A stretch of DNA of 64,000 nucleotides. Origin: Escherichia coli O127:H6 str. E2348/69. GTDB taxonomy: Bacteria; Pseudomonadota; Gammaproteobacteria; Enterobacterales; Enterobacteriaceae. Location: assembly GCF_000026545.1 (NCBI RefSeq), contig NC_011601.1; one strand, written 5' to 3'. Numbering within the stretch: position 1 is the first letter of the stretch; every line of letters begins with the position of its first letter. The translations under genes and the position numbers were made by a program. Of the stretch, positions 63,326 through 63,817 are shown in pieces. A model generated the notes under the pieces. The model searched no databases, was not told the DNA's origin, and was given only the letters and a program-made list of their open reading frames with translations.

Positions 63326-63371
63326 TTCTGATTTGTTACGTTAAACGCCTGTCATCCCGACAGGTGTTTTT

Positions 63372-63614
63372 TTATTCTTCGACCTCATTTTCCTGACGAA
63401 TCTGATTTGCCCAACGCTGGGCGGATTCAGGCACAGTAAACGCCGGTGAGCGCAGAAATGACTCCCCCATCAGTACAAACGCAACATATTTGCCACGCAG
63501 CATCCAGACATCACGAAACGAATCCATCTTTATCGCATGTTCTGGCGGCGCGGGTTCCGTGCGTGGGACATAGCTAATAATCTGGCGGTTTTGCTGACGG
63601 AGCGGTTTCTTCAT
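63372..63614 (-). CDS. cedA: cell division modulator CedA
   Basis: 80-aa product MKKPLRQQNRQIISYVPRTEPAPPEH... inside the listed 63372..63635 ORF. Confidence 0.85.
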   Translation of the reverse strand: MKKPLRQQNRQIISYVPRTEPAPPEHAIKMDSFRDVWMLRGKYVAFVLMGESFLRSPAFTVPESAQRWANQIRQENEVEE

Positions 63615-63817
63615 TACTGGCTTCACTAAACGCATATTAAAAATCAGAAAAACTGTAGTTTAGCCGATTTAGCCCCTGTACGTCCCGCTTTGCGTGTATT
63701 TCATAACACCGTTTCCAGAATAGTTTCCGAAGCGGGATCTGGCTGGTGGTCTATAGTTAGAGGGTTTTTTGACCAAAACAGCGGCCCTTTCAGTAATAAT
63801 TTAAGGAGACGAGTTCA

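Follow-up and report, generated by a model that had tools for sequence, protein, structure and literature searches.

The tcyP–cedA junction of Escherichia coli E2348/69 probably retains an ancestral convergent arrangement that is interrupted by ydjO in K-12-type lineages

Results

Organization of the tcyP–cedA–katE region

The window analyzed in this study, a 64,000-nucleotide stretch of the E. coli O127:H6 str. E2348/69 genome (NC_011601.1), contains near its 3′ end three genes in the order tcyP, cedA, and katE, an order already shown by the RefSeq annotation of this strain. The tcyP gene (ydjN), which encodes a 463-amino-acid cystine/sulfocysteine:cation symporter, occupies positions 61934-63325 on the plus strand according to its open reading frame and the RefSeq annotation of the locus. 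Its TAA stop lies at 63323-63325, and its product shares 98.9% amino-acid identity with TcyP of K-12. Facing tcyP on the minus strand is cedA (63372-63635), an 87-amino-acid open reading frame for a cell division activator/modulator, the complement of its stop occupying 63372-63374. The K-12 annotation of cedA begins at Met8 of this frame and therefore gives a protein of 80 amino acids. The window protein matches the Pfam family PF10729 (7.9e-46; 154.5 bits against a cut-off of 27), the NCBIfam equivalog NF007510 from end to end (residues 1-87 of 87; 187.7 bits against a cut-off of 78), and the solved structures of E. coli CedA (PDB 2BN8_A, 3.3e-54 over residues 1-87, and 8FTD_Z, 1.5e-49). Judged by these matches, the identity of cedA can be regarded as secure. 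Beyond cedA, a divergent intergenic region without assigned strand (63636-63817), which lies outside the indel described below and is 98-99% identical to K-12, leads to the 5′ end of katE, the gene for catalase HPII, on the plus strand. The ATG of katE is at 63818, immediately after the last base (63817) of the interval singled out in the initial annotation, and the gene is clipped by the end of the window at 64000. A simple scan of the cedA–katE intergenic region gave no σ70 consensus site, and an Rfam scan of 63000-64000 matched no family.

The stops of tcyP and cedA are separated by a convergent, strandless spacer of 46 bp (63326-63371); the ORF table and the sequence agree exactly with the initial annotation on this length. 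The annotation had also stated that no ydjO-sized gene lies between the two genes, and this holds, as there is no open reading frame of such size in the interval and searches of the whole 64-kb window with the K-12 YdjO protein (tblastn) and with ydjO DNA (blastn) returned zero matches. The window thus has neither mark of the ydjO-occupied, K-12-type haplotype, i.e., a ydjO reading frame or remnant and a CedA ending in QEGEV(T/A)E together with a K-12-type hairpin after cedA. Other genomes of phylogroup B2 are 99.1-99.5% identical to the window and have the same annotated gene order.

A terminator-like hairpin in the spacer

Most of the spacer is taken up by an element resembling an intrinsic terminator (63343-63373, plus strand), which was detected by a terminator scan and RNA folding. 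It consists of the bases AAA (63343-63345), the stem arm CGCCTGTC (63346-63353), the loop ATCCC, the complementary arm GACAGGTG (63359-63366), and a run of seven T (63367-63373), the final two of which fall within the complement of the cedA stop codon. The GC-rich stem with eight core pairs, followed by T7 on the plus strand, has the structure expected of a Rho-independent terminator. In the tcyP sense (plus strand), the RNA folds at -16.2 kcal/mol with a z-score of -3.2, and none of 200 shuffled sequences folds as well. In the cedA sense (minus strand), the hairpin reaches -12.8 kcal/mol (z = -2.25), and the sequence after it, GUUUAACG, contains only three U. A G·U pair of the stem in the tcyP sense corresponds, in the cedA sense, to an A·C mismatch. 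Since the A-tract consists of only three A and the stem has this G·U pair, the element is asymmetric and would probably terminate mainly tcyP transcripts. We infer from its sequence that it is a terminator shared by the two convergent genes, working mainly for tcyP and more weakly for cedA. It resembles the bidirectional intrinsic terminators between convergent genes of the Enterobacteriaceae in having, within a short spacer, a GC-rich hairpin bordered by an A-tract and a T-tract, a conserved architecture whose stem sequence varies by genus, but it differs from them in its three-base A-tract, as those of the outgroups are longer.

The ydjO segment of K-12

The initial annotation had stated, with some hesitation, that ydjO separates ydjN from cedA in K-12. 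This is borne out by the annotation of MG1655, in which tcyP (b1729) is followed by ydjO (b1730), a 288-bp spacer, cedA (b1731), and katE (b1732); the ydjN–cedA adjacency is therefore not found in the reference, and the proposed difference stands. In MG1655, ydjO lies on the minus strand, with its stop 3 bp from that of tcyP, and encodes 267 amino acids. Alignment with blastn gave sharp breakpoints at window positions 63332 and 63390, corresponding to positions 3833 and 4940 of the K-12 locus (L001), so that approximately 57 bp of the window stand opposite approximately 1,106 bp of K-12. The window segment without an alignable K-12 counterpart (63330-63389, no strand) is replaced in K-12 by about 1.09-1.1 kb, which comprises ydjO and the 288-bp AT-rich spacer of NC_000913. 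The last six codons of cedA (63372-63389, 18 bp) fall in this segment and are homologous in the two strains but recoded, the protein ending in QENEVEE in the window and in QEGEVTE in K-12. The sequence truly unique to K-12 is thus about 1.09 kb long.

The K-12 segment has a GC content of 35% in ydjO and 33% in the spacer upstream of it, compared with 52% in the flanks. It does not contain the shared terminator, and it carries hairpins of its own at both ends. Its sole open reading frame is ydjO, and inspection of the segment for a target-site duplication, terminal inverted repeats, and an integrase or transposase found none of them. Immediately beyond the breakpoint on the cedA side, identity to K-12 is again 98-99%, and the 3′ half of tcyP shows 96-97%. 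In comparison with K-12 b1729-b1732, the window therefore shares the flanking genes, their orientation, the cedA–katE control region, and 96-99% DNA identity, but K-12 bears the additional AT-rich ydjO segment of about 1.09 kb where the window bears the shared terminator and the NEVEE end of CedA.

Two other differences from K-12 were observed in the neighborhood. Past the 3′ end of the window, the katE–chbG spacer (L058 12172-12700 in E2348/69; L059 13122-13900 in K-12) is about 210 bp longer in K-12, and the two strains share only 80-85% identity over the adjoining end of chbG, which makes this a second local divergence hotspot. Within the window, a pseudogene of a type III effector of the ShET2/EspL2 family is annotated at approximately 54978-55758, at the position of the arpB pseudogene of K-12; this region is 94-97% identical to K-12 with an 867-bp indel.

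The junction in other Enterobacteriaceae

A scan for CedA using one genome per species yielded 54 loci, in 52 of which the spacer could be measured; with the window added, 53 junctions were compared, and their spacers were scored by an explicit test for an A-tract, a stem, and a T-tract. Across these 53 junctions, tcyP and cedA converge directly on each other, and the spacer has a median length of 63 bp. The genera with the convergent junction include Citrobacter, Salmonella, Enterobacter, Kluyvera, Leclercia, and Atlantibacter, in addition to four cryptic-clade Escherichia, among them E. whittamii. The arrangement of A-tract, GC hairpin, and T-tract is present in 47 of the 53 spacers, the stems being specific to each genus and the architecture constant. 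The hairpin of the window, CGCCTGTC-atccc-GACAGGTG, recurs as the same element in E. whittamii and in the loci L005 and L008 (CGCCTGTCatcccGACAGGCG), the stretch common to the window and the cryptic-clade Escherichia being AAAACGCCTGTCatcccGACAGGCGTTTTTTTT, and it resembles the hairpin of Citrobacter sp. NCU1 (CCGCCTGTA...TACAGGCGG). At the protein level, CedA of the cryptic clades ends in NEVEE, as in the window, and Citrobacter and Salmonella keep QEN at this place, whereas CedA ends in QEGEV(T/A)E in all haplotypes that bear ydjO.

Some of the spacers in other species are enlarged. In Siccibacter colletis (L050 4329-5046), the cedA–tcyP spacer is 905 bp long and holds one open reading frame of 63 amino acids and another of 120 amino acids with an apparent helix-turn-helix segment; on visual inspection, the two resemble a small toxin-antitoxin pair. 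Four other loci (L019, L039, L048, and L054) have spacers of 142-333 bp. Small inserts seem to have settled repeatedly at the convergent tcyP–cedA junction.

Occupied junctions outside K-12 and deletions of ydjO

The marks of the occupied haplotype, which are the glycine in place of asparagine near the C-terminus of CedA, the hairpin after cedA, and an open reading frame of the ydjO family, are found in E. albertii, in a clade-I-like Escherichia strain, and in E. coli outside B2. In E. albertii NBRC 107761 (L009 4262-4822), CedA ends in QEGEVAE, and a hairpin follows the stop at the same position as in K-12. Approximately 165 bp downstream of cedA, and in the same orientation, begins an open reading frame 39% identical to residues 22-135 of YdjO (tblastn 1.8e-17), which shares the motifs FISTG and FNYMIA with YdjO and is cut off by the end of the contig. 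When its 132-amino-acid partial product was used as a query against a collection of 5.8 billion proteins, the sole match was one 79-amino-acid fragment.

The clade-I-like strain, Escherichia sp. MOD1-EC7003 (L007), whose tcyP is 95-96% identical to that of E. coli, is also of the occupied type. Its junction (4262-4461) retains ends of the K-12 type together with both K-12 hairpins, and it has a 32-codon remnant of ydjO and a CedA ending in GEVAE. The missing 893 bp lie between 12-bp direct repeats, AA(C/T)AGATCGTCA, located at positions 3918 and 4811 of the K-12 locus (L001). This strain shows what the scar of a true ydjO deletion looks like.

Two E. coli genomes have unusual rearrangements at this place. 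In strain ES4 (L003 6427-8607), a rearrangement flanked by IS1 and located directly after tcyP has eliminated the larger part of ydjO, as well as cedA, katE, chbG, and part of chbF. In strain HH97 (L002 1927-2097), the flanks are of the K-12 type, about 106 bp of odd, G-rich sequence (GGCGGCGGTGGGGGTGTCCCGG...) stand in place of ydjO, and katE is annotated as a pseudogene. The G-rich replacement in HH97 is probably assembly noise and not biology.

Distribution among complete E. coli genomes

Among 5,426 complete E. coli genomes, the empty class was counted with an 83-bp probe specific for the junction. The empty junction was found in 1,123 genomes, all matching with at least 97.5% identity over the 83 bp and at one place each, and the K-12-specific segment in 4,301 (about 79%), with coverage of at least 80% in 4,240. 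The two classes together account for 5,424 genomes, which is also the number with any match to the locus. A ydjO segment is wholly missing, at megablast sensitivity, from 1,125 of the 5,426 genomes (about 21%). Among 60 rows sampled from the empty class, every strain that we recognized by name is one we take to belong to B2, namely ATCC 11775T, UM146, BEN2908, APEC O2-211, ATCC 25922 (Seattle 1946), isolates of O25b:H4-ST131, and E2348/69 itself. The difference in gene content suspected in the initial annotation is consequently real, but its description as a strain-level difference has to be amended: with 1,123 empty genomes standing against 4,301 with ydjO, it is a difference between lineages or phylogroups.

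Properties and distribution of YdjO

No match to YdjO was found in Pfam, NCBIfam, or the PDB, leaving it without a family or fold match, and none in PHROG or PADLOC. A word-indexed search of 5.8 billion proteins returned only variants and fragments from E. coli. When 1.84 billion representatives were searched exhaustively with phmmer, the only matches were E. coli fragments and one further protein, P0034, with 26% identity. We rejected P0034 as a distant homologue of YdjO, as its contig is K-12 sequence with A and G interchanged. The Logan contig L060 (SRR33321306) contains the K-12 cedA–ydjO–tcyP region swapped in this way at essentially every position, with 555 A-to-G changes, 425 G-to-A changes, and 10 other mismatches. 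This data artefact is present in protein databases and could mislead homology searches. The search for relatives on phages found none, and the matches labeled as plasmids are only three records of chromosome size (4.8-4.9 Mb). YdjO is therefore an orphan restricted to Escherichia.

Within E. coli, the dN/dS ratio of ydjO is 0.19-0.32, compared with 0.04-0.12 for tcyP in the same strain pairs, and ydjO is under weakened purifying selection. The gene is annotated as a frameshifted pseudogene in O157:H7 EDL933 (L063 1497-2299), and in strain C51 (L062 1497-2302) it has a frameshift as well as an internal stop. It is thus dispensable and decays in some of the lineages that carry it. One E. coli allele, P0006, is only 76% identical to K-12 YdjO. 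All of the divergence is in approximately the first 165 residues, the C-terminal third being nearly identical to the common alleles, which suggests that P0006 is a mosaic formed by recombination inside ydjO.

Discussion

The junction between tcyP and cedA exists in E. coli in two forms, one with and one without ydjO, and the question of interest is which of them is the older. As the terminator-like element of the spacer and the NEVEE end of CedA are orthologous to those of the cryptic clades and fit the pattern found throughout the family, we regard the junction in the window as a site that was never interrupted. It is likely, in our judgment, that E2348/69 retains the ancestral enterobacterial tcyP–cedA arrangement, into which ydjO was never inserted, and that the K-12-type arrangement was derived from it by insertion. 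The data therefore support a gain in K-12-type lineages as the polarity of the difference, not a loss in E2348/69. We infer the terminator function of the element, as well as the direction and the mechanism of the insertion.

The events may be envisaged as follows. In the ancestral state, tcyP and cedA would have converged on one short spacer, in which a single GC hairpin ended transcription, efficiently for tcyP and less so for cedA. In K-12-type E. coli, a foreign AT-rich segment of about 1.09 kb, made up of the orphan gene ydjO and a 288-bp upstream promoter-island region, may then have landed within approximately 4-7 bp of the tcyP stop. Such an insertion would have replaced the shared terminator and overwritten the last 18 bp of cedA, while bringing its own hairpins at both ends. 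It may have taken place by illegitimate recombination, and homologous recombination in the flanks may later have carried the segment from lineage to lineage.

In its composition, the K-12 insert recalls the AT-rich insertions of orphan genes with promoter islands of the H-NS type (PMC3661553): it is AT-rich and taxonomically restricted, and the spacer between ydjO and cedA appears in the promoter-island table of that study. This likeness holds for the K-12 allele only, as the window is entirely without the island.

The most obvious alternative is that B2 strains once carried ydjO and deleted it, the 46-bp spacer being the scar. A loss of this kind is conceivable for a gene that is dispensable and decaying, being frameshifted in EDL933 and C51, internally deleted in MOD1-EC7003, and removed in ES4, and the occurrence of the occupied haplotype in E. 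albertii and the clade-I-like strain means that it is possibly older than E. coli. However, a deletion cannot rebuild an ancestral terminator or the ancestral 3′ codons of cedA, and the spacer and the NEVEE end of the window are orthologous to those of the cryptic clades and match the family-wide pattern. Moreover, the real deletions that were observed retain the K-12-type ends, and the window contains no ydjO-derived sequence. The orthology of the spacer appears largely to refute a deletion, which we consider very improbable. Even less credible is a collapse or other assembly artefact in the window, since the same junction is present in 1,123 independently assembled complete genomes, including that of the type strain ATCC 11775, and the last 1,101 bp of the window match E2348/69 with 100% identity; we give this explanation practically no weight.

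Somewhat harder to dispose of, yet still unlikely in our view, is a history in which the ancestor of E. coli had ydjO and B2 acquired the empty allele anew through homologous recombination with a donor that had an empty site, or in which both states persisted as a long-lived trans-species polymorphism. The distribution of the two states is patchy, with E. albertii, MOD1-EC7003, and non-B2 E. coli occupied and B2 and the cryptic-clade loci L004, L005, L006, and L008 empty. The divergence between B2 and K-12 is slightly higher in the 3′ half of tcyP (96-97% identity, as against 98-99% in most nearby intervals), and, for the same strain pairs, dS is higher in ydjO (0.15-0.17) than in tcyP (0.07). 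On the other hand, the B2 spacer differs from the cryptic-clade spacers as much as the flanking genes do, or more, which argues against a recent import from that source. To the right of the junction, cedA is 98-99% identical to K-12 with no long imported tract visible, a test of low power.

Insertion into a previously uninterrupted site, the reading that we prefer, does not imply one recent event. A single recent insertion after the split of B2 would be too simple, because E. albertii and the clade-I-like MOD1-EC7003 are also occupied, and the insertion seems to be older than the diversification of E. coli. Either both alleles have long coexisted, or homologous recombination in the flanks has transferred them between lineages; the B2 allele could accordingly have been re-imported by recombination instead of being retained vertically. 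We put forward only tentatively, as a possibility that we doubt more than we believe, that the junction harbors an ancient trans-species presence/absence polymorphism of an orphan gene found only in Escherichia. If true, this would require long-term upkeep of both alleles or repeated homologous recombination between species, and it would hint at selection on ydjO or on the regulation of the 3′ ends of cedA and tcyP.

Taken as a whole, the locus represents an ordinary difference in accessory gene content between lineages and is of little scientific weight. Both the B2-type and the K-12 arrangements are already annotated in RefSeq, and no new kind of element is involved. The points that go beyond routine are only two, the polarity, with K-12 as the derived form, and a consequence for a diagnostic marker.

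With regard to the latter, a 2024 paper puts YdjO forward, alongside YahL and YjfZ, as one of the conserved signature proteins by which E. coli/Shigella could be detected by qPCR in water monitoring, its sensitivity panel consisting of ten hemorrhagic strains and seven environmental isolates (PMC11057252). The primers and probe published there are absent from the 64-kb window. Such a marker cannot detect genomes without ydjO, which make up about 21% of complete E. coli genomes and include extraintestinal and enteropathogenic strains such as ST131 isolates, BEN2908, ATCC 25922, and E2348/69. With regard to the polarity, the comparison corrects the natural assumption that the pathogen has lost a gene of K-12. 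It is the K-12-type junction that would have been changed, by an insertion that probably removed a conserved terminator and recoded the C-terminus of CedA.
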